DNA from: a virus
Lineage: Duplodnaviria > Caudoviricetes
DNA: 51,791 bases
Reading direction: 5' to 3' (one strand)
Virus record (IMG/VR): IMGVR_UViG_3300023218_000017
Location: 1-51,791 of that record
The translations under genes were made by a program, and so were the position numbers. This document shows, piece after piece, positions 2,542 through 51,791 of this stretch. The notes beneath the pieces are model-generated. The model saw nothing but the letters and a program-made list of their open reading frames with translations. It made no database searches and had not been told where the DNA came from. Within the stretch, counting starts at the first letter, position 1. Every line of letters begins with the position of its first letter.

Positions 2542-2821
2542 ACGAGCAAGGATGCTCGCTCTCACTGCTGCGGGATGTTCTTTTCAGTGGGAACCGGGGT
2601 TGAGTCACGGCGGTGACGGGACATATAACGACTCGGCCTATATTCATTGGCTTCGAGCGGAAAAAATCTGTGAAACTTGGGGATTTTCCTACGACGAATG
2701 CAAGCAAGCATGGCAAGACTTTCGGGATCGCCATAAAGACCGATACCCGAGCGGTAATTGGCAACCCGTAGAACAAGCTTATTTGGATTCATTGGAGAAC
2801 GGAAAGGTCGAGCATGAGTGA
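2498..2821 (+). CDS. Hypothetical cassette protein (start inside attC L3; ATG 2486 is an alternative)
   Basis: Starts MSEERTNCL; its 3' part is duplicated, inverted, at 51666-51791. Confidence 0.7.
   Translation: MSEERTNCLAASGSPRARMLALTAAGCSFQWEPGLSHGGDGTYNDSAYIHWLRAEKICETWGFSYDECKQAWQDFRDRHKDRYPSGNWQPVEQAYLDSLENGKVEHE
2675..2800. repeat. 126-bp perfect inverted repeat, copy 1 (partner 51666-51791)
   Basis: Base-by-base match of acttggggattttcc...attggagaac to the reverse complement of the window end. Confidence 0.95.
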
Positions 2822-2857
2822 GGAACGAACGAATTGTCTCGAACCGTCTGGTTCTGT
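2794..2857 (-). mobile_element. attC-like site L4
   Basis: Minus strand: ACAGAAC-cagac-GGTTCGAG-a-ca...tg-CTCGACC-tttcc-GTTCTCC; same loop as L3, with compensatory stem changes. Confidence 0.85.
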
Positions 2858-3089
2858 GTCGCGGGCAGTCGATAACTGCCGCAAGGCTAAAGTAACAAGG
2901 GTTAAGCCTGCGATTCATCACGGTTGCATTCGATTCCTGATTTGCGTCGAAGGTGTTGAGGAAAACGTAGGGGGGATCGTTTACAGTTTTGACGATTCGG
3001 TTTCTTTGTCAGAAATGCAAAGTATCGCCAATGAGGTGAATGAGATTATTTCACAGAACGGGGATTATACGACAGCTGTCCGATATTAA
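2814..3089 (+). CDS. Hypothetical cassette protein, 91 aa
   Basis: Starts inside attC L4 (MSEERTNCLEPSGS); bounded by GTTCTGT and ACAGAAC. Confidence 0.7.
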   Translation: MSEERTNCLEPSGSVSRAVDNCRKAKVTRVKPAIHHGCIRFLICVEGVEENVGGIVYSFDDSVSLSEMQSIANEVNEIISQNGDYTTAVRY

Positions 3090-3096
3090 AAACCAG

Positions 3097-4371
3097 ATGC
3101 CTGATATTCCCGTAACCAAAAATTACGTCAGCCTAAAAAAAGCGGACGCGGCGGGGAACTTTTACAAGGTCCTTGAAGGGTCTTCCGGCTCGGGCAAGAC
3201 CTTTTCGATCATCCAATATCTGATCGAGAAAGCGATGAGCGGCAAGCGGCGTATCACGGCCTATCGAAACGATCAGGCAACGTGCCGGGATTCGATTATC
3301 CTGGATTTTCAAATTGTGATGGCCGAACAGTTCGGGCTCTGGAAGCAGGCGAATTGGAATGGATCGAACATGGAATATAAATTCCCGAATGGATCGATCT
3401 GGCAATTTCGGGGCACGAACACGCCGGCCAAATTGCACGGGCCCCGGCGCGAAATCTCCTGGGGAAACGAGGTGATGGAGATCAGTTGGGAAGCGCACCG
3501 GCAAATCTCCCTGCGGACGAGTGAGGAGATGATCTATGACTTCAATCCGTCGCTGAATTACCACTGGATTTTCGACCGAATCATGCCCCGGACGGACTGC
3601 GCGCATATCCACTCGACATTCCGGGACAATCCGATGCTCCCGGAGAAAGCCCGGCTGGAGATCGAGGGCATGGAGCCGACGCCGGAGAACATAGCCGCGG
3701 GCACGGCGGACGAATGGGGCTGGTCCGTCTATGGTCTGGGCCGACGCGGCCGGCGCGAAGGGGCGATTTTCAAGCTGTGGGACATCACTGACGATTGGCC
3801 GGACCCGATGCTGTGCCAGCGGTGGGGGTTCGGGATCGACTATGGTTTTTCGCTGGATCCCACGGCCGTCGCGGAGTGTGCGCTGTTTCAGGACCGGCTT
3901 TATCTTCGGGAAAGACTCTACGAAAAAGAGCTGGTCGCCCAGGCGAACGCGCTCGACCCGGAAACACCCAGCATTGAGGGCGCGTTGCGGGAAATGGGGA
4001 TCCCGGAGCACGCGCGAATCCATGCGGAAAGCGCACGGCCGGAGATCAACCGGGCACTCCAGAAGTCGGGATTCAAGATTGTGCCTACGATCAAACGTTC
4101 GGATTCAATCCTCGCGGGGATCGACCGCCTGCGCACCTACCCGATAATGATCCACCGAAATAGCCAGAACATGCAGCGGGAGTTCGAGAGCTACACCTGG
4201 GACAAGAACGCGGCGGGCGAGTATCTGGATCGTCCGATTGACCGGGACAACCACCTGGTTGACGCGGCCCGGTATTGGGCGCTCGGAGAAATGGCTCCGC
4301 AGCGAAGCATAATGGCAGGGAAACGGCCGAAGTCACGCCGGGCGAAAAGCAACTTGCGGACATGGCGGTGA
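3097..4371 (+). CDS. terL: Terminase large subunit, PBSX-like
   Basis: Walker A EGSSGSGKT, Walker B ISWGNEV, DFNP motif, HSTFRDNP, nuclease motifs GIDYGF and NHLVDAARY. Confidence 0.93.
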   Translation: MPDIPVTKNYVSLKKADAAGNFYKVLEGSSGSGKTFSIIQYLIEKAMSGKRRITAYRNDQATCRDSIILDFQIVMAEQFGLWKQANWNGSNMEYKFPNGSIWQFRGTNTPAKLHGPRREISWGNEVMEISWEAHRQISLRTSEEMIYDFNPSLNYHWIFDRIMPRTDCAHIHSTFRDNPMLPEKARLEIEGMEPTPENIAAGTADEWGWSVYGLGRRGRREGAIFKLWDITDDWPDPMLCQRWGFGIDYGFSLDPTAVAECALFQDRLYLRERLYEKELVAQANALDPETPSIEGALREMGIPEHARIHAESARPEINRALQKSGFKIVPTIKRSDSILAGIDRLRTYPIMIHRNSQNMQREFESYTWDKNAAGEYLDRPIDRDNHLVDAARYWALGEMAPQRSIMAGKRPKSRRAKSNLRTWR

Positions 4372-4850
4372 AGCTGCATCAGTCCGGGGATTCGCGCGTG
4401 ATTCTTTGGGCGCTGGAGCAGATGCAACAGGAATGGCCGGAACTGGATTTGTTTCGGTGGGCGAAAGGTGAAAGCCTGCAAAGCAAGTCCGAGTGGATCG
4501 CAGCCAACGCTCGGTTCTGGCTGGTCTGGCACGGTGAACGCCTTGTCGGCTATCTCGCCGCAACCGATCAGGGCAGAGGCCGATGGGTGTTTCACTTCGG
4601 AGGCCGGCGGGTGCTACCGCCAAACATTTTCCTTTCGGGATGGCGTGAATTTCTCGAAATCGCGGAGCGTGAAGGGGTCCGGTTGGTGGCGGCATATATA
4701 CCACCGGAGCGGCCCGCAGTCCGGCGGATGGCTCGACTTTTTCAATTCCGACGATTTTCGAAAATATTATGGGCATGGGAGGCAGTGTACCGAAACTCAA
4801 ACCGCCGCCAAAGGCTGCGCCAAAAACGACCCCGGAAGACGAGGACGTAA
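4362..4850 (+). CDS. Hypothetical protein, possible GNAT/acetyltransferase fold
   Basis: Overlaps the terL stop; FWLVWHGERLVGY...VRRMARLFQFRR pattern. Confidence 0.45.
   Translation: MAVKLHQSGDSRVILWALEQMQQEWPELDLFRWAKGESLQSKSEWIAANARFWLVWHGERLVGYLAATDQGRGRWVFHFGGRRVLPPNIFLSGWREFLEIAEREGVRLVAAYIPPERPAVRRMARLFQFRRFSKILWAWEAVYRNSNRRQRLRQKRPRKTRT
4690..4700 (+). promoter_or_regulatory. Candidate late promoter CGGCATATATA, copy 1
   Basis: Exact 11-mer seen four times; this copy is about 70 bp upstream of the small gene/portal pair. Confidence 0.55.
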
Positions 4851-4960
4851 AGCAGGCGGGAGACGCGGAGCGCCGGAGGCTGGCCGCAATGCAGGGGCGT
4901 AACCAGACCGTGCGGAGTTCGCGCAACGCCGCCGGGTATAAAACCGTTCTCGGAGTCTGA
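4769..4960 (+). CDS. Small virion/assembly protein preceding the portal
   Basis: MGMGGSVPK.KPPP...RRRL...KTVLG pattern and position typical of T7 gp7.3-like/BPP-1-type genes. Confidence 0.65.
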   Translation: MGMGGSVPKLKPPPKAAPKTTPEDEDVKQAGDAERRRLAAMQGRNQTVRSSRNAAGYKTVLGV

Positions 4961-6609
4961 TGGACGAACTAGGCGATAAAGTTGTCTCGGGCTATGATGC
5001 GCTTAAATCCGCGAGGGGGACCTTTGATTCCCGGCTGGATGACATCACGTTCTATGTCCTTCCCGAGTATGAGAATCAGAATGAGCGGACCAGAGGCGAC
5101 GAAACCCCGGACCGTCCTGCGTCTTCGGCTCCGACGGATGCGGCGATTCTGCTGGGCGGACATTTGTTCTCGCACCTGGTGCAGACCGGGGACCAGTGGT
5201 TCACGATCCGGGCGCGTAGCGATTCGGACGCGGATACGGACCGCGAGACGAAGGAATGGCTGGACAAAGCCGGGAAAAAAGCACTCAAGGCGATTCAGAA
5301 CAGCAATTTCGCGGAAGCGTTTGGCGAGATGTGCACGCTTTACGGAACCTACGGGACCGGATCGATTTCGACCGATTGGGACCAAGAACGGGGCGAACTT
5401 ATGTTTCGCAATCATCCGATTTGCGGAAACATTTACCTGACCGAAGACGCGCGCGGCCGCGTGAACGGCGTGACAAGGCTAATCCGATACACGGCGGAAC
5501 AAGCCGTCGAGCGATACGGGCGGGACAAGTTGCCAAAATCTGTGATCGATTGCTACGGCGACCCGGCCAAGCAGGGCGAGAAGCACGATTTTATCCATCA
5601 GGTCTCGCCGAATCCGAATTACAACCCGGAACGCCGGGACAGCGGATCGATGAAATACCGTTCGCTGCACGTTCATCGGAAAGACAAGAAGGTGATCGAG
5701 CAGGGCGGGTTCCGCACTTTCCCGTTTGCCTGCCCTCGCTTTATCAAGGTTCGTGACTTCCCATATGGCTATGGCTCCGGGCATCTGGCATTGCCCGCGA
5801 TTCGCGAGCTGAACAAAGCGGAAGCGGATTTCATGGACGCTTACGAGATGGAGGCATGGCCACCCGTCTGGTTCCCGGACGAAGAGGCGGTGGAAACCTC
5901 TGAAATGGCTCCCCGAGCGATGAATTACTTCGATCCGCAACTAGGCGTACCCTTTCAACTCAAGACCAACGGCAACCCGGGCGCGCTTTTCAACCGGATC
6001 ACACAACTGGAACAACGGGTCAACCGGCAGTTCTTTATTGATGTGTTTCTTGCGGTCTCCGCCCGCTACGATCAGGAAAAGACCGCCCGGGAAGTCGATG
6101 AACTCTCCGAGGAAAAGCTCTCGAGTATCGGGCCTATGGTGTCCCGCCTGCAAAGCGAGTGCTTCGCTCCGATGATCGAGCGGGTCGTGGATCTTCTGAT
6201 CGAATCCGAGGTGATCGATCCCCCTCCCCCGAATTTGGCCGGCGAAGGCTTCCGGATCGTTTACACGTCCCGAGTGGATTCGAAGCTGGCGGCAATCGAG
6301 GTCAACCAAATGCTCCGGGCCGCCCAGGAAGCTTCCACGCTTCTGGCGATGGATGCCGAGAATCCGCAATTTTCCCGAGTCTTCAAGGCCGAGGAAGGGG
6401 CGATCAATATTCTCGAGCGCCGGAACGTGAACATGGATTTGATTCCGACGAAAAACGACCGCCGAAAAATGGACCAGGCGGATGCCGAGGCTATGGCGCA
6501 GGCCAAGCAGCAAGAGGCAATCGCCCAGCACGTCGGCAAGATCGACCCCGGCAAGCGCCCAGAGGACGGTTCGCCCATCGATGAGCTGGCGAAAGGAGGA
6601 GGGCTCTAA
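4960..6609 (+). CDS. Portal (head-tail connector), T7 gp8/BPP-1 type
   Basis: 549 aa; YGTG, GGFRTFPFACPRF, YGYG.G, KTAREV...EEKL..IGPMVSRLQSE...P.IER motifs. Confidence 0.9.
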   Translation: MDELGDKVVSGYDALKSARGTFDSRLDDITFYVLPEYENQNERTRGDETPDRPASSAPTDAAILLGGHLFSHLVQTGDQWFTIRARSDSDADTDRETKEWLDKAGKKALKAIQNSNFAEAFGEMCTLYGTYGTGSISTDWDQERGELMFRNHPICGNIYLTEDARGRVNGVTRLIRYTAEQAVERYGRDKLPKSVIDCYGDPAKQGEKHDFIHQVSPNPNYNPERRDSGSMKYRSLHVHRKDKKVIEQGGFRTFPFACPRFIKVRDFPYGYGSGHLALPAIRELNKAEADFMDAYEMEAWPPVWFPDEEAVETSEMAPRAMNYFDPQLGVPFQLKTNGNPGALFNRITQLEQRVNRQFFIDVFLAVSARYDQEKTAREVDELSEEKLSSIGPMVSRLQSECFAPMIERVVDLLIESEVIDPPPPNLAGEGFRIVYTSRVDSKLAAIEVNQMLRAAQEASTLLAMDAENPQFSRVFKAEEGAINILERRNVNMDLIPTKNDRRKMDQADAEAMAQAKQQEAIAQHVGKIDPGKRPEDGSPIDELAKGGGL

Positions 6610-6857
6610 TGCCCGAGCAAACCAGAACCGGGCTGCGCTCCGCGAATCTCGGTCGCCTGGTCGAGCAAGTCAGCCGACTGCCCGAAGGCAAGGAACTGCT
6701 GGAGGCCATCGACCGGGAATGCGGCTATCGGCGAACGGTATTCGCTCCGGGTTGCGAGCGGCAGAATAATTTCAACCAAGGAAAACAGCACGTGGCCAAT
6801 TGGCTGCACGAAAAACACGACAAATACCTAATCCAAGGATCAGAAGATGAAAAATAA
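6609..6857 (+). CDS. Small protein between portal and scaffold (Bbp19-like)
   Basis: EGKELLEAI...FNQGKQ.V pattern and synteny. Confidence 0.65.
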   Translation: MPEQTRTGLRSANLGRLVEQVSRLPEGKELLEAIDRECGYRRTVFAPGCERQNNFNQGKQHVANWLHEKHDKYLIQGSEDEK

Positions 6858-7713
6858 GTGGATACGAGTCTTTTTGCGCGAACAAGCCGGCGACGGCGCT
6901 GACGGCGGAGGCGGTGATGGCGGACCTAATGACGGCGCTGACGGTTCCGACGGCGGCGATGGCGGCGGCGATGGCGGAGCCAACCCCTGGTATGTCGACG
7001 CCGGATTCTCCGAAGACGTGGTGAATACGGATGGGATGTCCGATTACCTCAGCCGATTCAAGAGCGCCGAAGAAGCGGTGAAAAGCGGCTATGAAGCCCG
7101 CAAGAAGCTCGGCAACGCGACCGAGGGCATGGTCAAAGTGCCCGGCGAAGATGCGAGCGAAGAAGAAAAGGCCGCGTTCCGCGAAGCTGTCGGCGTCCCG
7201 GAAAGTCCGGACAAATATTCCTGGAAGCCTCCGGAAGGCATGGAGGTCGATCAAGAAATCTTTCAGGATCGTCTCGGTAAGCTGCATGAGGCCGGACTGA
7301 GCGATGCTCAGGTCTCGCAGGCGATGGACCTGTATGCGGAGGAAATCACCCGCATGAACGAGGATTTTCAAAACCACCAGGCCGAGATCGCCAAGGAGAC
7401 GGAGGATTCGCTCCGGAAAGAATGGGGCGAGAAGTATGATGACAACATCAAGGAAGCCCGGGCCGTCGCCGAGAAATACGGCGTGATCGAAGCGATGAAG
7501 GAGACCGGGATGATCAACCAGCTCGGGGTCATCAAGATGCTGCACGAAGTGTCCCGGTCGACGCGAGAGGACGGGATCGACAGCGGAGGCGGAAACATGA
7601 GCGCTTCGGACGAACTTGCGTCGCTGAAGGAAAACCCCGCATGGACGGACAAGACGCATCCTGAGCACCGGAAGTTGGTCGAACGGGCCGTCGAGCTACG
7701 CAAGCGACTTTGA
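6847..7713 (+). CDS. Capsid scaffolding/assembly protein
   Basis: Acidic Gly/Asp-rich N-terminus; G.PESPDKY, LRKEWG..YD and DKTHPEH motifs; lies between portal and capsid. Confidence 0.8.
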   Translation: MKNKWIRVFLREQAGDGADGGGGDGGPNDGADGSDGGDGGGDGGANPWYVDAGFSEDVVNTDGMSDYLSRFKSAEEAVKSGYEARKKLGNATEGMVKVPGEDASEEEKAAFREAVGVPESPDKYSWKPPEGMEVDQEIFQDRLGKLHEAGLSDAQVSQAMDLYAEEITRMNEDFQNHQAEIAKETEDSLRKEWGEKYDDNIKEARAVAEKYGVIEAMKETGMINQLGVIKMLHEVSRSTREDGIDSGGGNMSASDELASLKENPAWTDKTHPEHRKLVERAVELRKRL

Positions 7714-23496: not shown

Positions 23497-23778
23497 ATGC
23501 CAAACGCCAAAAAAGACTGGACCGCAATCGTTATAATTACGCTTCAATCCGCCATCCTCGGCATCGGGGGGTGGACGCTCTGGTCCGTGCACCGTCACGA
23601 GGCACGCATTATGGCGCTGGAGGAGTGGCGCGGCGGCGAGCGGGCCTACACGCCCAGCGACGCCAAGGATGACATGAGGCGACTCGCCAACGAAATCGAG
23701 AACAGTAACTCGGTCCTCAAAGGCCACGACCGCCGCATCCGAGAGCTGGAGCTGATGCTGGCCCGGATGAAGCAGTGA
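23497..23778 (+). CDS. Single-TM coiled-coil protein (holin/lysis accessory candidate), paralog of 40539-40820
   Basis: MPNAKKDW, then a TM helix, then ...GHDRRIRELELMLARM. Confidence 0.65.
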   Translation: MPNAKKDWTAIVIITLQSAILGIGGWTLWSVHRHEARIMALEEWRGGERAYTPSDAKDDMRRLANEIENSNSVLKGHDRRIRELELMLARMKQ

Positions 23779-24698: not shown

Positions 24699-24740
24699 TG
24701 GCGAAGAACGCTTTCGCCTGCTGCGCCGTGCAGAGTCCGC

Positions 24741-24790
24741 GGTAGCGCTGGTGAAGGAGTCGAACCCTTTTTGTTTCGTTGATTATCAGC
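24741..24790 (-). other. Degenerate tRNA 3'-end fragment / candidate att core
   Basis: Minus strand gctgataatcaac...aagGGTTCGACTCCttcaccagcgctacc: a T-loop consensus with no D or anticodon arm. Confidence 0.5.
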
Positions 24791-24816
24791 TTTTTATAAA
24801 TCGTGTTTGCAGAATG

Positions 24817-27800
24817 TTAGCGGAGGGAGCGACCGAGAAGTTGTTCGGCGAAGGCTTTGCGCTGCTGATCGGTTTGGAGCATGGACTGGGTGAGGATGTT
24901 GACAAGCTCGGAGTATCGGGGCGTGAACTGGCGCTGTCCTTCTCTGGGGAACAGGATTTTCTCGCTGCCTTTGCTCTGCGCGATGCGGCTGTAGTAGCGC
25001 ATGGCGAGTTCGACTTGCTGACGCTCGTGGTCGGTCAGGGTGGCATACCAAGCGCGGCGGTCGTCTTTGCTGAGACCGCTGAGGGGGTCTTGCGCGCGCA
25101 CGCTGGACTGGAATCGCTCGGCCGTGTAGCCGTAGTCCAGCAAGAGGTTATAGAACTTGATGGCCGCTCCGATGTCGGCGTTGTAGATCGCTTTACGGAA
25201 GTTGCGGATCGCCTGCTGGTCGGGACTGTTGTAGTCGAATCCGCCTCTGGCTTTGCCCTGGGTCTCTTCCAGCCATTCGGCGGTTTTGTCGCGTATTTCG
25301 TAGTAGGCCCATTGCTCGGGATCGCGGCGGCGAATTTGGAGGATAGCCTGTTGCGCCCACTCCGGGAATGATTTCGGGCTGTAATATTCCTCGTCTAGAA
25401 GACTGCGCAACGCAAGCGATGCGCTGCGGTCGGTTGTCGTACTCAAAATATTCCACCAGAGGTCATGCTCGCTTATGGTGCGCTGGTCGAAAATATCGGG
25501 GAACGGGTTTTTACGAGACACCCCCATATAAGCACCTTTCAGGTCAGGCCGGAATCCTTGAACCACTTTATTCATTAGATCTGGAACCAGCGTTTTCCCA
25601 TAATCGCTGACCATCTGATCGAACGAAATACGCTGGGCAGCGTAATCCGTGAACAAATTCCCAAGGCGATTGCCTCCGAACCACTCCATAATGTCGGACA
25701 GAGCGGTGGGTGTATGGACGACTCGAATTTTACCGTTGGCGTCGCGGCCTAGAATGATGTGCAGGCGGCGGCGATCATGCTCGGACAACTGGCTTTCGAG
25801 GTCGTCGTCTTCGTCCCACAGGCCTACCATTTGCCCTCCGAAATTGTTCCATAGCTGAATAGCCAGATACGGCATCATAAGACGCACCCAGACACCCATC
25901 ACCGTAGCGGCGGCGGCCTTACCCTGCATTTCTGCGTGTGTCATAGCTTCGCTCCACCGTGTGGCACGAAGCATGTCAAAAGTGTTCCTCAGCAAGTTTG
26001 CATGATATCGGAAGTTGATCTCCATCCAGGAGTAGAACGGTATCATTTGCTCGCGGAGCGTTTGCCCCGTCAGCGAAAGATTCGAGTAATCGCCAAAGGT
26101 TCGTTGACTGATGTAGGCGGCTTTCGCGTATATACCCTCACGCGCTTCCACGTCTTTGTGATAAGCTCCGCCATAGACCGGGGCGGCCCCGCCTCGCATG
26201 CGATCTACATCGGCCTGGAATTTGGCATATCGAAAGGTTGATTCGCGGAGCCGGGCGACATCCGTCGTTCGCGTGGCCCATTTCCGAACGTTGTTCCGCG
26301 TCAGCTCACCAGAGGTCAAAAACTCCGCGAACTCGTCGAACTGCTTGAGCTGTCCTGATTCCTGCACGGTCACCGAATCGATGACTCCTCGCTTAAACGC
26401 TTCGCGCAGCTCGACACTGGGTTCAGCTTTGCCGTTCCAGAAGGCACGCAATTCTTGTGCGGCCGGTTGCAGAGTCTTAAAAAGACCTGGTTCTAAGGCT
26501 AACACTTTCTCGAGGTCTGCCAAGGTGTTGTTGAACTCATAGCGGATGTAGTTCCACGGGGCGAAAAGGATGTTGTATTTCCACATTCTCAGAGGAAACC
26601 CCAAAATCCCTGATCCCATTCGAAATATCGCGCTGTTGCGAATTTTCTGACGTTCCTTGATTGCCTGTAGTGCTTCGGCGACTGGCTCGGGAACAAGCCA
26701 TTGCTTTTTTTCTCCGGCGGTCAGGGCGGTGCGCAGCATTTCCGGAGTGATGTCCGCCTCCACTCCGAGTTCTTTCATGCGTTTCCGCAGGTCGCCGTCT
26801 CCGAAGGCGACCCCCAATTGTTCGGCGAGCATGTCCCGATCAATCATGTATTCCATGCGAAGTGGAAGCGTGTCGTCGACGGTATAAAGCCTGTAGCCGG
26901 CCGGGTGATTATTCGGGTTTTTCCATTCGTCGGCGTGCGCGCGGCGGCCTTCTTCCGCCGCTTCCGCTTCGAGTTCGGCCTGCACCTTTTCGCTGATATC
27001 GTAAGGCTTCCAGTATTCCTCCACCAGGTCTTGCTGGGCATTGTGCGCTCTTACCTGCACGACGTGGTGGTAGATTGCCTTCAGGTAGTCGGCCTCGATG
27101 GATTTGCTACTGCCCACGGGATCGATCAAATAGCCTCGAAAAGGTTCGCTGGGAAGGGGCTGAACCCGCCCGAGTTTCCCGCTGAAATTCTCGATCACAT
27201 GGTGGGGGTAATAAAGCGGATTGCGCAGGTCTTCCGGGATAATCTGGCCGTGATCGAGAAGATCCTGTTGCAGTTCTTCGACGAGTTTGTAGTGCCGTTT
27301 GAGCGCTAGCCCGATTTCCGCGCTGTGCTTGTTCTCCGCGATCAGACCGTGGATATCGCCCAGGCGGCGGCGAACATCCTCCGGCTGGAGACCGCCCGGC
27401 AATTTAAGAGGCTTGCCGTCGCTGTTCGTCATCAGCGATCGATACCAAAGGTCCCGGTAGATGATTGCCGTTTGGAACAAGTAAAATGGATTGTCCGCCA
27501 GTTTCTCTTCGAGTGCTTCGATCCTGGCATTTAACGAGGCGGGCACCTTGGCACCGGCTTCGCGGCGCTTGCTGCGCCTTTTCACCAGCGTTTGCAATTC
27601 GCGCATGTCGTTACTACCCACCACTTCGCGGCCGAGGGCTCGGATCGGCTCGACAATATGCGCCAAATCTTCCTGCGCTTGTTTACGAACCTCATCGGTG
27701 GACGCGATAAGATACCGGTGGCCTTCCCGGAACTTAATGAAAAATTGCGGCATCTTCCCCTGCCACTGTCGATACTTCGGGAGTTCCGGGATGGCGTCTT

Positions 27801-40538: not shown

Positions 40539-40820
40539 TTATTGCTCCATCCGGGCCACCATCAGCTCCAGCTCTCGGAGGCGGCGGTCGTGGCCCCGTA
40601 AAGCGGTGTTCATCGCCTCCAGTTCGCGTTCCACACTCGACATGTCGGCACGCGCATCCTCCGGCGTGTAAGCCCGCTGGCCTCCGCGCCATTGCTCGAG
40701 CACCGACAGCCGGACCTCAAGTTTGTGGGTCGTATAAATGTTCCACCCTCCAAGGCCGAGTAGCATACTTTGTAGCGTCATGATGATTAGTGCGTTCCAG
40801 TCTTTTTTGGCGTTTGGCAT
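40539..40820 (-). CDS. Single-TM coiled-coil protein (holin/lysis accessory candidate), paralog of 23497-23778
   Basis: MPNAKKDW...GHDRRLRELELMVARM. Confidence 0.65.
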   Translation of the reverse strand: MPNAKKDWNALIIMTLQSMLLGLGGWNIYTTHKLEVRLSVLEQWRGGQRAYTPEDARADMSSVERELEAMNTALRGHDRRLRELELMVARMEQ

Positions 40821-48292: not shown

Positions 48293-49723
48293 TCAGCCGG
48301 CGTAGAAGCCGGCGCAAAGTTCCTGTTCGTCTTGCTCTTCCTTCCACTCGGTCACCGGGCGGATGGATTTGCTGTTCTCGGTGAGGTTCACGCGCTCGGG
48401 CGTGGGAGCCATGAGGCTGCCCAGCACCGCGTCCGCTCGGTCCGGGCTCGGCAGGCCGTCGGCCTTCATCTTTTTTTTGCTCTGCACCTTGAGCGCCCCG
48501 TCGCTGGTCCGGTCATCCCACAGCCGCGTGGTCAACTGCCCGATCAGGTCGTCATCGTTCGGCAGGATGATTTCTCGATCGGCGATTACCTTCGCACCGC
48601 GGCCCCACAGCTCACTGATCAAATCCTTGTAGGCGCGCGGGTCGCTGGCTTTCGCTCCGTTCTCGATCCGGCGGATCGGCCATCCCAGCTCATGCAGCCG
48701 GTCGATAATCGGCTTACCCAGCCCGCTGTTGTCCCCGCTGATCTCGTCCGCATCAAGGCCCAGCTTGCGGAATTGCCGGATCAGCTCACCGCACGCCGCC
48801 ATCGTATTGCGCTCGCGCCAGCATTTGACGAGATGCACCTGATTACCATCACGGAATGCCAACACATTTTCGTCCCCACCTGCGGCGAAGTCGACAAACG
48901 CGTGCCGGTCGCCCGGCTGGAATTGCGGCGGATGCGCCAGGCACAGTTCGAGCGACGCGCTGTCGATGACGTTCCCCGCGTCCGGATCCGGCGCAAACTC
49001 GCCATACACGGAGCTACGCACGAACGGATGATCCTCGCCCCACTTTTTGATGATATTGCCGATCTTCTCCCGGTCCAGGTGCGGACAGTCTTCCAGCCCC
49101 ACCGCATGGGTACGGTAGAGCGCCCGGTTCTTGTTGAAGCTCCAGTAAAAATCCCCCGTGGATCCGCCGGGGCTGCTCATCAGCAGCGTACGCGTCGGAC
49201 GGCAACGGTCGATTGCGCTGTAGATCGCCTGCTTCACGCTCTTCGCTTCGTCCACCAGCACAAACAGAGGCGGCGTTTCCATAATCGCCTTACCCTGCTC
49301 GTCCTCTCCGATCTTGATCTGAGGCAGATCGTGGAAGCCCTCGAATCGGCCCGGATCGTCCGTCGAAAACGCCACGAACATGCTACCGTTCGGAGCCTGG
49401 ATGCTCGTCTCGCGAAACTCCCATCCCCGGAACGCCGGGTTGTTGCTCTGCCGGCGAAGCGCCGGCATCAGCTGGTATTTCACCTGGCGAAACGATCCCG
49501 ACGTGGCCACCGTTACGCTGCCCGGATACACCATCATGTGCCACAGGATCGCCACCACCGCGACGTGCGTCGTTTTCCCCGCCTCATTCGGGCATCTCAG
49601 CGAAACCTGTCCCGGTCCCTCCAGGTCGAACAGCACGGCCGCTTGCCAGTTGTAGGTCGGGATTCCCAACACCAGATCGGCAAAGCCCACGGGCGATGCG
49701 GCTATCGGATCAATTTCGACCAT
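48293..49723 (-). CDS. terL: Terminase large subunit
   Basis: Walker A RCPNEAGKTT, Walker B VLVDEA, MSSP, FVDFAAGGDE, SPDRADA; GGAGG RBS before ATG 49723. Confidence 0.9.
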   Translation of the reverse strand: MVEIDPIAASPVGFADLVLGIPTYNWQAAVLFDLEGPGQVSLRCPNEAGKTTHVAVVAILWHMMVYPGSVTVATSGSFRQVKYQLMPALRRQSNNPAFRGWEFRETSIQAPNGSMFVAFSTDDPGRFEGFHDLPQIKIGEDEQGKAIMETPPLFVLVDEAKSVKQAIYSAIDRCRPTRTLLMSSPGGSTGDFYWSFNKNRALYRTHAVGLEDCPHLDREKIGNIIKKWGEDHPFVRSSVYGEFAPDPDAGNVIDSASLELCLAHPPQFQPGDRHAFVDFAAGGDENVLAFRDGNQVHLVKCWRERNTMAACGELIRQFRKLGLDADEISGDNSGLGKPIIDRLHELGWPIRRIENGAKASDPRAYKDLISELWGRGAKVIADREIILPNDDDLIGQLTTRLWDDRTSDGALKVQSKKKMKADGLPSPDRADAVLGSLMAPTPERVNLTENSKSIRPVTEWKEEQDEQELCAGFYAG

Positions 49724-50501
49724 GCTGCGCCTCCCATTCCCGCCGTTTGACCGCAAAGGCCTCCGTGACTTCGTTTCCGGCGGTGTAGTGCACCACTTCG
49801 CCGCTCAGGTTCACGTTCAAGTTCAGCTTGCCCAGCAAACTGCCGAGTAAAGTATCCTCCTTCGTGGCAAGCGCGGCATACCGTCGCTCATCGGTTTGGG
49901 CCGCCGCCAGATCGCGCTCCGCCGTCTTGATCGCCTCCCGGTGCAGTTTACTGTCCTGCACGCCCTCGGCCATGCGCTCCTGCCGCTCCCGCTCCAAAAA
50001 TTCCACTTTCGCCTGCGCCTGCTCGATGGCTTCATGCGCCGACTTCGCCCGCTCGTGCCACATCACGCTGCGCTCGTAGACCCGGCCCACCAGCTTGTCC
50101 GCATCCTGGCTGACTTGTGACAGCGCCGCCTGGTAAATCCGAAATACCTTAGCCTTCCTTAGCGTTTTCGAGGCCCAGACGCCCGCCCCGTCCTTCTCGC
50201 CCTGGTACCCCGCCTCCAGCGCCGCCCGCGCCATCTGCCCGTGCTTCAGCAGATTGTTGACGAACTTCAGTTCCTTCGCACTCACGTCCGCAATGCCCGA
50301 TGGTAGGGATTCCGTTTTCACTCCCAGATTCGCGAACCCATCCAGCGCCAACTGCTGGCTCTGCTTCAATGCTGCGGTGGCGGTGCTCACACCACCTATA
50401 CGGGCAGGCCTGCGCCGTCCGTAAAAGTCTGTTTTTCTCCCCAGTTCTTCCCAGATCGTGCCAAACCGTGCCAAGGATCCACTTTTCATCCCGCCGCCCA
50501 T
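49710..50501 (-). CDS. terS: Terminase small subunit (start uncertain)
   Basis: SAKELKFV...RAALEAGY...ASKTLR HTH; overlaps terL. Confidence 0.72.
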   Translation of the reverse strand: MGGGMKSGSLARFGTIWEELGRKTDFYGRRRPARIGGVSTATAALKQSQQLALDGFANLGVKTESLPSGIADVSAKELKFVNNLLKHGQMARAALEAGYQGEKDGAGVWASKTLRKAKVFRIYQAALSQVSQDADKLVGRVYERSVMWHERAKSAHEAIEQAQAKVEFLERERQERMAEGVQDSKLHREAIKTAERDLAAAQTDERRYAALATKEDTLLGSLLGKLNLNVNLSGEVVHYTAGNEVTEAFAVKRREWEAQHGRN

Positions 50502-50524
50502 CGATCAGATATCCCTGAGTCGTC

Positions 50525-51337
50525 TCAATACTCATAGAAAAAATCGAAATCCCTGATAGCTGTCTCGTAAGCTTCAGATCTTCCGCGCACGTATGCGTCA
50601 TGTCTATCTCCCATCCGAAGCGACTCATCAGAACGAAGCTCTTTTTGGTAGCGCTTTACAGTGTCTAGTCGATCAACCAGTTGCTGCCTATAACCAGCCG
50701 GGTCAGGGCAATCCCTTGCCGCTCCGCCGTTCGTTACTTCGTCGTGCTTGTTTTCTTTTTGGTTTTGATAGTTCTCCTTTGGTTGTTTCGGGATTCCTGC
50801 TCTCCACGTCAGCTTCATGAAGACCATCCAGTGCGTCTTCGCGGTTTTCCCGCAGCGTTGGCCGAACAGCGGCCGCTCCGGTGTGAGCGCCAGGATCTGC
50901 GAGACCGGGATGTCCGATTCGTTCCACTTGAAGACGAGCGTCCCTTCGGGTTTCAGCACTCGGAAGCATTCCGCGAATCCCTTGCGAAGCTCCTCCTTCC
51001 AGTCGCCTTTTAGCGTCCCGTACTTGAGCCCGACCCACCCTTTTGCACCGTTACGGACGAAGTGCGGGGGATCGAAGCAGACGAGAGCGAAGCTCTCATC
51101 CTCGAATGGAAGCGCCGTGAAGTCGGCCACGATGTCCGGATTCACGATAAGCGTGCGCTTCCCGCCCTTGCTCGACTTGTCCTTCAGTTCGTGGGTCTCG
51201 CACCGCTTATCCAAGAAGATTGCCCGGTCATCGGACCGGTCGAACCAAAACATTCGAGACCCGCAGCATACATCGATCACCGGAGCTGAACCAGACGGAT
51301 CAGCCAATTCATTTCGTTCGTTCCTCACTTCATTCAT
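50525..51337 (-). CDS. SAM-dependent methyltransferase cassette gene, read through into the next cassette
   Basis: VIDVCCGSRMFW and FDPPH motifs; homolog of 1649-2413; starts inside attC R2. Confidence 0.85.
   Translation of the reverse strand: MNEVRNERNELADPSGSAPVIDVCCGSRMFWFDRSDDRAIFLDKRCETHELKDKSSKGGKRTLIVNPDIVADFTALPFEDESFALVCFDPPHFVRNGAKGWVGLKYGTLKGDWKEELRKGFAECFRVLKPEGTLVFKWNESDIPVSQILALTPERPLFGQRCGKTAKTHWMVFMKLTWRAGIPKQPKENYQNQKENKHDEVTNGGAARDCPDPAGYRQQLVDRLDTVKRYQKELRSDESLRMGDRHDAYVRGRSEAYETAIRDFDFFYEY
50688..50813 (+). mobile_element. attC-like site R1 (degenerate R' core)
   Basis: CTATAAC-cagcc-GGGTCAGG-gc-aatccc...gggatt-CCTGCTC-tccac-GTCAGC; paralog of R3. Confidence 0.7.
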
Positions 51338-51357
51338 GGCTGTCCTCGTTGTTATCA
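51285..51357 (+). mobile_element. attC-like site R2
   Basis: GCTGAAC-cagac-GGATCAGC-ca-a...tg-GCTGTCC-tcgtt-GTTATCA; loop related to L3 and L4. Confidence 0.85.
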
Positions 51358-51627
51358 AAATTTTCCTCCCATTGCCTTGTAGGTTTTTTTAACCTCGTTG
51401 GTCCACGGGAGATAGCAGCCGGAAAAATCTCCTGTGTGCTTGTGTGCAAACCTCTTCCCGCACCGCTCGCACCGCACCAAGTCAGCGTTCCGTGAAAGCT
51501 CCTGCTCAATTCTGAAGTCACAACCCCCGAGTCGACACCTTGACCAGATAACCAGCCGAGTCAGGAAATCCCTTACCTCGCCGCCGTTTGTTGCTTCGTC
51601 GTGTTTGTTTTCTTCGTTGGTCTTCAT
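51355..51627 (-). CDS. Small Cys-rich (Zn-ribbon-like) cassette protein
   Basis: AAAGGAG RBS and ATG inside attC R3; CRLGGC...CERCGK. Confidence 0.7.
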   Translation of the reverse strand: MKTNEENKHDEATNGGEVRDFLTRLVIWSRCRLGGCDFRIEQELSRNADLVRCERCGKRFAHKHTGDFSGCYLPWTNEVKKTYKAMGGKF

Positions 51628-51672
51628 AAGTCTCCTTTGGTTGCTTCGGGATTCCTGCTCTCATTGTTCTCC
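51546..51672 (+). mobile_element. attC-like site R3
   Basis: AGATAAC-cagcc-GAGTCAGG-a-aatccc...gggatt-CCTGCTC-tcatt-GTTCTCC. Confidence 0.85.
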
Positions 51673-51791
51673 AATGAATCCAAATAAGCTTGTTCTACGG
51701 GTTGCCAATTACCGCTCGGGTATCGGTCTTTATGGCGATCCCGAAAGTCTTGCCATGCTTGCTTGCATTCGTCGTAGGAAAATCCCCAAGT
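51666..51791. repeat. 126-bp perfect inverted repeat, copy 2 (runs to the window end); 3' part of the shared cassette gene on the - strand
   Basis: Reverse complement is identical to 2675-2800. Confidence 0.95.

Follow-up and report, generated by a model that had tools for sequence, protein, structure and literature searches.

Putative back-to-front integron cassettes in an integrase-less array of a phage contig

Clusters of attC sites without intI, termed CALINs, have been described in phages, where DNA methyltransferases are among the cargo and five of six tested phage attC sites were recombined by IntI1, according to the portions of that report available to us (Qi et al. 2023, PMC9892861). 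In the attC site as outlined in the accessible sections of Nivina et al. (PMC5027507), extra-helical bases lie near L'', the crossover falls at AA|C of the bottom-strand R' and the bottom strand is purine-rich; cassettes inserted facing the promoter are said there never to have been observed. IntI can also insert cassettes outside attI, at attG, as stated in the available text of Loot et al. (bioRxiv 10.1101/2022.09.11.507474). Here, we analyzed a window of 51,791 nucleotides of phage DNA. Judging from its sequence, the array near the right end of this window is quite probably an integrase-less phage array of back-to-front integron cassettes, whose genes would start inside their own attC sites and which would likely be moved by an external IntI. 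We regard the reversed array as real, namely as a phage CALIN with reversed cassettes.

The window and its two phage modules

The window is a complete virus record, and the array-side end of the contig falls within the array. It contains two complete, unrelated morphogenesis modules (head and tail) which face each other and meet at about 24700-24820 (~24.75 kb), with no integrase between them. Their terminase genes are as follows.

554-1057, + strand: terS of the left module
3040-4371, + strand: terL of the left module
48293-49756, - strand: terL of the right module
49710-50501, - strand: terS of the right module, immediately downstream of the right array (Terminase_2, E 1.7e-4, below the Pfam cut-off)

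The first-pass annotation had described two unrelated phage backbones, and this description holds: blastp gave no match at E<0.01 between the terS, terL, portal, capsid, tail and large proteins of the modules. The only proteins matched across modules were a small membrane-like protein (60%) and the methyltransferases (61% identity between left and right). The former, of 93 residues, is encoded at 23497-23778 and 40539-40820, with DNA stretches 84-94% identical, and another one occurs in locus L002; its sharing suggests, at the sequence level, gene exchange in a common host.

No replication genes were found in the contig, and a PF00589 search for tyrosine recombinases gave no match within it. 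Because G003, a 36-kb, 96%-complete phage, has the left module by itself, the window probably joins two phage genomes, and their meeting at ~24.75 kb reflects either tandem prophages or a chimeric contig. This junction was found in none of the other viral contigs in which it was sought. A tRNA-derived att core at the junction (~24750) was considered and rejected, as ARAGORN found 0 tRNAs at the 10 genome loci carrying the 21-mer in question and none in the window. Unitig depth ratios between the modules vary by run (19.3:32.8; 10.7:6) and are too noisy as proof of separate replicons.

Sites, cassettes and polarity of the arrays

The right array comprises three sites, R1 to R3, and the cassettes that they delimit.

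50525-50687, - strand: cargo of cassette A, ~54 codons, GC 0.46
50688-50813/50814, + strand: R1, a decayed paralogue of R3; begins CTATAAC, R' core GTC, L-box mismatch, competing hairpin
50525-51337, - strand: 270-aa ORF, phage DNA methyltransferase (phrog_954, E 1.6e-71), start within R2
51285-51357, + strand (top strand): R2, an intact short attC of the L3/L4 family; R'' GCTGAAC, R' GTTATCA
51355-51627, - strand: 90-aa ORF, cargo of the R3 cassette, start within R3
51546-51672, + strand (top strand, antisense to the ORFs): R3, an intact long attC; R'' AGATAAC, 5-nt spacer, L box with two extra-helical bases, R' GTTCTCC
51666-51791, - strand: 3' end of cassette X, exact reverse complement of 2675-2800, at which the contig terminates

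Its counterpart in the left module has the following features.

1629-1725, - strand: attC L1, preceding the left methyltransferase
2478-2857, - strand (top strand, antisense to the ORFs): left array, with attC L3 (2478-2541), cassette X and attC L4 (2794-2857)
3053-3059, + strand: ACAGAAC core closing the last left cassette, 7/7 complementary to the L4 core; a probable insertion point just ahead of the left terL

At the end of the left methyltransferase itself there is a GCAGAAC core and, after it, an attC-like arm (2206-2253); neither of our two scanners found a GTT partner for it, and this is possibly a half site.

The final 126 bases of the contig are identical to the left cassette X, and this identity stops just past GGAGAAC (AAC core), which is the predicted integrase crossover. 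The two arrays therefore have cargo in common and, being letter-identical over the 126 bases of cassette X in view, are not independent examples, a point that the first-pass annotation missed. No homologue of cassette X was found, and its protein has a different end in each of its two contexts.

A contig that ends in an exact left copy, that carries two complete modules without replication genes and whose left module also exists as the stand-alone G003 might owe its second array to assembly, the end having come from the left phage or a variant and been stitched on via shared repeats; the joining in run X3 of R3-ORF-R2 also to a left cassette would agree with this. We nevertheless hold such an origin to be very improbable. 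A single X1 unitig spans 48500-51695, with terL, terS and the three sites, without a difference, an X2 unitig spans 48500-51534, and L001, from another assembly, ties R2 and R1 to terS, terL and portal at 100%. What is in doubt is the module join at ~24.75 kb; the connection of the array to terS is not.

On the + strand, R2 and R3 read AAC, 5 bases, 3 pairs, an unpaired base, 4-5 pairs and an unpaired A, with 5 bases and GTT at the other end. Both possess the boxes and spacers of attC (AAC/GTT cores, 5-nt spacers, extra-helical bases on the R'' arm), whereas R1 does not. With 188 bases between them, on the same strand and without intI as far as the contig reaches, R2 and R3 qualify as a CALIN. 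A strict attC-geometry scan gave four matches in the window (L3, L4, R2 and R3), whereas 40 dinucleotide shuffles yielded 0.48 on average and never more than 2. A looser scan, which added L1, gave seven; two of these stand alone and are probably spurious, and 30 shuffles yielded 2.2 on average and at most 5. As both scanner versions were designed after the sites had been seen, these shuffle controls tilt in their favour. R1 was missed by the strict and the loose scanner alike.

The predicted probability of the attC fold was 0.28 for R3, 0.049 for R2 and 2.4e-8 for R1; 44 chromosomal sites have a median of 0.065 and go no lower than 3e-4, a range that includes R2 and R3 but not R1. These values come from constrained folds, which were used because the unconstrained folds of R1 and R2 lack the attC fold. 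Between bottom and top strand, the values were 0.049 vs 0.052 for R2, where neither strand is preferred, and 0.28 vs 0.18 for R3, where the preference is slight; 36 of the 44 chromosomal sites favour the bottom strand. Three sites of the same geometry had been annotated: their coordinates stand, as does the geometry of R2 and R3, and that of R1, with its low fold probability and its absence from both scans, does not. The assignment of R1 and R3 to one long paralogous type was correct, their segments being alike at 86% and 89%, and the decay of R1 had gone unnoticed; an alignment of R1, R3 and an L011 site has 86% mean column identity. The loop of R2 is indeed common to L3 and L4.

R1 is likely a dead site that has turned into a protein linker. 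Its ATG is now ATC and it is read through in frame, so that the methyltransferase is fused via R1 to the ORF of cassette A. The sequence of R1 is no assembly slip of the window, since it is identical in L001 and the three runs (X1-X3, possibly the window's own source) show no letter or indel difference. That the GTT to GTC change alone disabled R1 was dropped, because such a change in one partner only left recombination at the wild-type level, according to the available text of Frumerie et al. (PMC2811028); the fold remains the case against R1.

The cassettes of the right array pair at their ends largely as had been annotated. The 90-aa ORF cassette is bounded by GTTATCT and TGATAAC, complementary at 6/7 positions, and that of the methyltransferase by GTTCAGC and GCTGAC, the latter one base short of a complement; homologous methyltransferase cassettes end in GCAGAAC (left array) and GCCGAAC (L105). 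Judged by the match of a cassette start to its own R'', X is complementary at 7/7 in its left copy and A has no clear match: the terS-proximal end of cassette A shows no clear core matching R1'' and no recognisable attI.

No homologue of cassette A was found, also among shorter proteins. The 90-aa ORF had no Pfam, PHROG or NCBIfam match, a homologue search returned only the ORF itself, and its cassette was not found at any other locus; its predicted structure resembles DUF1660 clusters (TM 0.59), which is a lead only. Among GenBank phages, matches were to the methyltransferase only (13 records), and this enzyme, by analogy, probably protects against restriction.

The sites also carry translation signals on the ORF strand. 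R3 contains a GGAG ribosome site, the ATG (51627) with which the 90-aa ORF begins and, overlapping this ATG, the stop of the cassette X ORF; R2 contains a GAGG ribosome site and the methyltransferase ATG (51337). The classical cassette layout, with the ORF on the top strand and ending near R'', is absent, as the ORFs lie on the bottom strand and start inside attC.

This polarity, with sites antisense to the ORFs, had been annotated from the outset, and the sites are borne out as members of the attC family by an arm profile and by L-box covariation. The profile, built from 37 chromosomal attC with cores masked, favours the antisense strand as top over the flipped arrangement by 16-27 bits for R1-R3 (R1, -2.4 vs -19.0; R2, 9.4 vs -17.8; R3, 5.1 vs -18.0). 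In 19 short-type sites, placing the bulge on the 3' arm of the ORF strand leaves the L box 95.5% paired, with compensatory change in 7/7 pairs, as compared to 56.4% paired in the mirror register; 0/500 shuffles reached this compensatory change, the 19 sites being related and the shuffle counts not probabilities. The extra-helical bases, the crossover and the purine excess (top-strand purine fraction 0.32-0.34 in R1-R3) all fit, and the bottom strand is therefore the ORF strand here. As a positive control, the published TJE1 CALIN was scanned and gave three sites, with sense ORFs; at the published CALIN MW202573 the scanner gave isolated matches only and no polarity call.

Related arrays, host and position in the phage genome

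A covariance model was built from sites of the short (R2) type, as had been proposed in the first-pass annotation; it recovers L4, L3 and R2 by construction and L1 weakly. Run on the family of Thalassobacterium sedimentorum (Coraliomargaritaceae), it found clustered sites in 55 of 101 genomes, and it also matched attC near chromosomal intI. In 18 stretches from Coraliomargaritaceae genomes, three of them with intI, 28 of 34 cassettes look sense, and five of the other six belong to one reversed array (L173). Long-type patterns sought in genomes gave four loci, none with an array. Of 121 genomes of the order, 27 have an IntI scoring above the TIGR02249 cut-off; the best chromosomal relatives of the right terL (47-48%) also belong to this order. 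Since site family, IntI and terL relatives all point to this order, the host is probably an Opitutia bacterium.

Matching cores (3-4 of 4 variable positions) were present in 45/51 adjacent-site intervals near chromosomal intI and in 28/38 elsewhere. The top strand was purine-rich, a proxy for sense genes, in 37/45 near chromosomal intI vs 3/28 in other loci; this proxy is indirect, the cassettes are not independent, and nine duplicate loci were dropped. Of 75 cassettes outside the window, 40 gave an ambiguous result in a direct test of ORF orientation.

These data bear on whether the elements are dispersed REP-like repeats or RNA regulatory hairpins, such as terminators or translation signals, that play no part in recombination. 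Ribosome sites and start codons within the sites, and related sequences in many genomes of one family, are what such elements might show, yet this explanation is largely refuted and we give it hardly any weight. The loop 16-mer has three matches in a 4.6-Mb genome and one in a 5.5-Mb genome, a scarcity on which the REP reading fails. Matches to the model cluster on one strand, some of them beside intI, and the flanking cores pair in most intervals. The sites have no Rfam match, and neither a terminator-like site at R1-R3 nor, by consensus scan, a promoter was found. Genome-wide repeats without complementary cores, which the earlier reader had named as the finding that would overturn the proposal, are thus not what was observed.

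The claim that the two backbones draw on common attC families and that the system is not a one-off is upheld. Nine other loci contain this methyltransferase, two of them in reversed arrays. The closest methyltransferase found, 77% identical, lies in L105 (G126), where 2747-6888 holds seven reversed attC and a divergent intI (346.8 bits, cut-off 265), and, upstream, a second integrase, of the phage type. A phrog_2 terminase match is lacking in G126, whose phage nature rests on its virus listing and the integrase-like gene. In the AT-rich phage G127 (L111:6921-13004), 13 reversed attC of another sequence family surround a homologous methyltransferase, and no IntI was found in its 30.7-kb fragment. 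L011:671-2085 has four reversed sites, one of which is 77% identical to R3 but comes with an N6/N4 methyltransferase from a different family. L173 (G775:C48), a fully reversed 7-site array in a host-family genome, is possibly part of a prophage. L025 and L028 have single reversed cassettes that share the polarity of their otherwise normal arrays; these two loci and L065 (G068) contain small antisense phage-like ORFs among normal cassettes, two of them in the stretch around a chromosomal intI.

With regard to position, the arrays adjoin terminase genes in both modules of the window, from which the first-pass annotation had concluded that phage backbones keep them there. As a rule, this fails: none of 28 loci with relatives of the right terL has an array (identities 26-68%, including L002 at 68%; four loci, L123, L124, L132 and L140, are short), and the array was rejected as a trait of the right backbone on this count. 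The strict scanner found no site in L004-L007. In L011 the array also adjoins a terminase gene, lying between the end of a gpA-like gene and a lambda portal; in G003 it lies ~2 kb ahead of terS, and in G127 and G004 at ~8.5 kb and ~10 kb from terL, respectively. The arrays most plausibly mark the end of an accessory-gene operon rather than a terminase-linked system.

Cassette movement and comparison with known systems

Evidence for movement comes from cassette X. In 3/3 runs, a 306-base unitig forks at 51666, one path leading into R3 and the other into L4, and its depths (48.3, 20.3 and 16.8) are close to the sum of the branches. Cassette X thus has two different neighbours, L4 and R3, the junction with each falling exactly at the AAC core, past which the two are non-homologous. 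The window thereby adds a recent-looking event, with one cassette, two neighbours and a core-exact junction in one community. If it follows the left copy, the 306-base unitig begins inside L3 (2495), and the L4 unitig ends in a 29-base loop common to L3 and L4 (2810-2839); one hybrid L4/L3 site would explain both ends, going by the lengths.

A 233-bp cassette of the R2 family, 93-99.6% identical in L012, L014, L015, L024 and L026, has five different downstream neighbours after its attC, and its similarity begins at or near the first GTT. The site therefore travels with the gene that starts in it.

A third arrangement, in X3, is of another kind. Here the R2 body (51286) is joined to the left cassette Y (2857-2886), at a depth of 5.5 vs 5.4 for the methyltransferase path, and the switch falls at base 5-7 of the R'' core and not at the IntI crossover, which counts against a pure IntI account. 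It could be that the sites merely descend from attC, that they now serve as linkers carrying ribosome site and start codon, and that arrays are shuffled mainly by homologous recombination of the RecT type. The R2/Y hybrid switches within an 11-base shared stretch plus the core, the left relative G003 (96% complete) encodes RecT and no IntI was found in it, R1 is kept as coding sequence despite its lost fold, and one L4 body precedes unrelated ORFs in several loci, all of which would suit such shuffling. It accounts poorly, however, for the switch of X right after AAC between neighbours unlike beyond the core, for the five neighbours of the 233-bp cassette that begin at GTT, and for the retention of compensatory pairing and core complementarity, needless for homology-driven exchange. 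We therefore judge it unlikely, if the most serious of the alternatives.

We favour integron-type movement of reversed cassettes. The ORF strand would fold as single-stranded DNA and be cut at AA|C by an IntI supplied in trans, either by the host, probably an Opitutia bacterium, or by a co-resident element like G126. The unit moved would be the site plus the gene starting in it. Transcription would start at a phage promoter located upstream of the array and proceed towards terS. Each site would provide a ribosome site, a start and often the stop of its neighbour, so that a newly arrived cassette could be translated at once as part of the operon. Entry of cassettes would take place at the terS-proximal end, here eroded. 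The arrays are likely also shuffled by homologous recombination between near-identical site bodies.

A broader proposal, which we find slightly easier to doubt than to believe, is that phages of Opitutia hosts keep their own class of reversed cassettes made from phage accessory genes, in which attC doubles as ribosome site, start and stop. These would be traded between unrelated phages via the host integrase, some reaching chromosomal integrons, and the shared attC bodies and the R2/Y hybrid would then represent cassette formation in progress.

If integron-type movement is right, integron recombination would be a site-specific route for accessory-gene exchange between unrelated phages, beyond bacterial gene capture, and a cassette of reversed layout could enter a phage operon bringing its own translation signals. 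Identical attC bodies ahead of unrelated phage genes would also bear on how cassettes originate. R2 and R3 are short sites suited to the standard recombination assay, and R1 provides a natural negative.

The literature searched, which included few subscription papers, yielded no description of phage or prophage attC cassettes with antisense genes. The accessible parts of PMC4889954, PMC8618304 and PMC13323075 do not describe the reversed layout, and the available main text of Qi et al. (PMC9892861) makes no mention of antisense, opposite or reverse orientation. The phage CALINs of that study, as far as its available text goes, resemble the window in being attC clusters without intI that carry DNA methyltransferases. 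TJE1 and PH101 are called typical there and P12002L has divergent attC, whereas the genes of the window are antisense and start inside the site. Textbook attC sites, as presented in the accessible sections of Nivina et al. (PMC5027507), share with the window the R and L boxes, the AAC triplet, the extra-helical bases near L'' and the purine-rich bottom strand. In textbook cassettes, again following those sections, the cargo is read from Pc on the top strand; in the window, in contrast, the gene is flipped within the cassette while attC polarity is uniform. Insertion outside attI, at attG, would explain arrays at varied places in phage genomes, going by the available text of Loot et al. (bioRxiv 10.1101/2022.09.11.507474), but the first junction of the right array is eroded. 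The chromosomal integrons of Coraliomargaritaceae and of the order share the site family, by covariance model and arm profile, but possess intI and have mostly sense cargo. Phage CALINs with methyltransferases and some active sites are thus already known from the published texts available, and the reversed-gene layout, as read from sequence, appears to be the new part.
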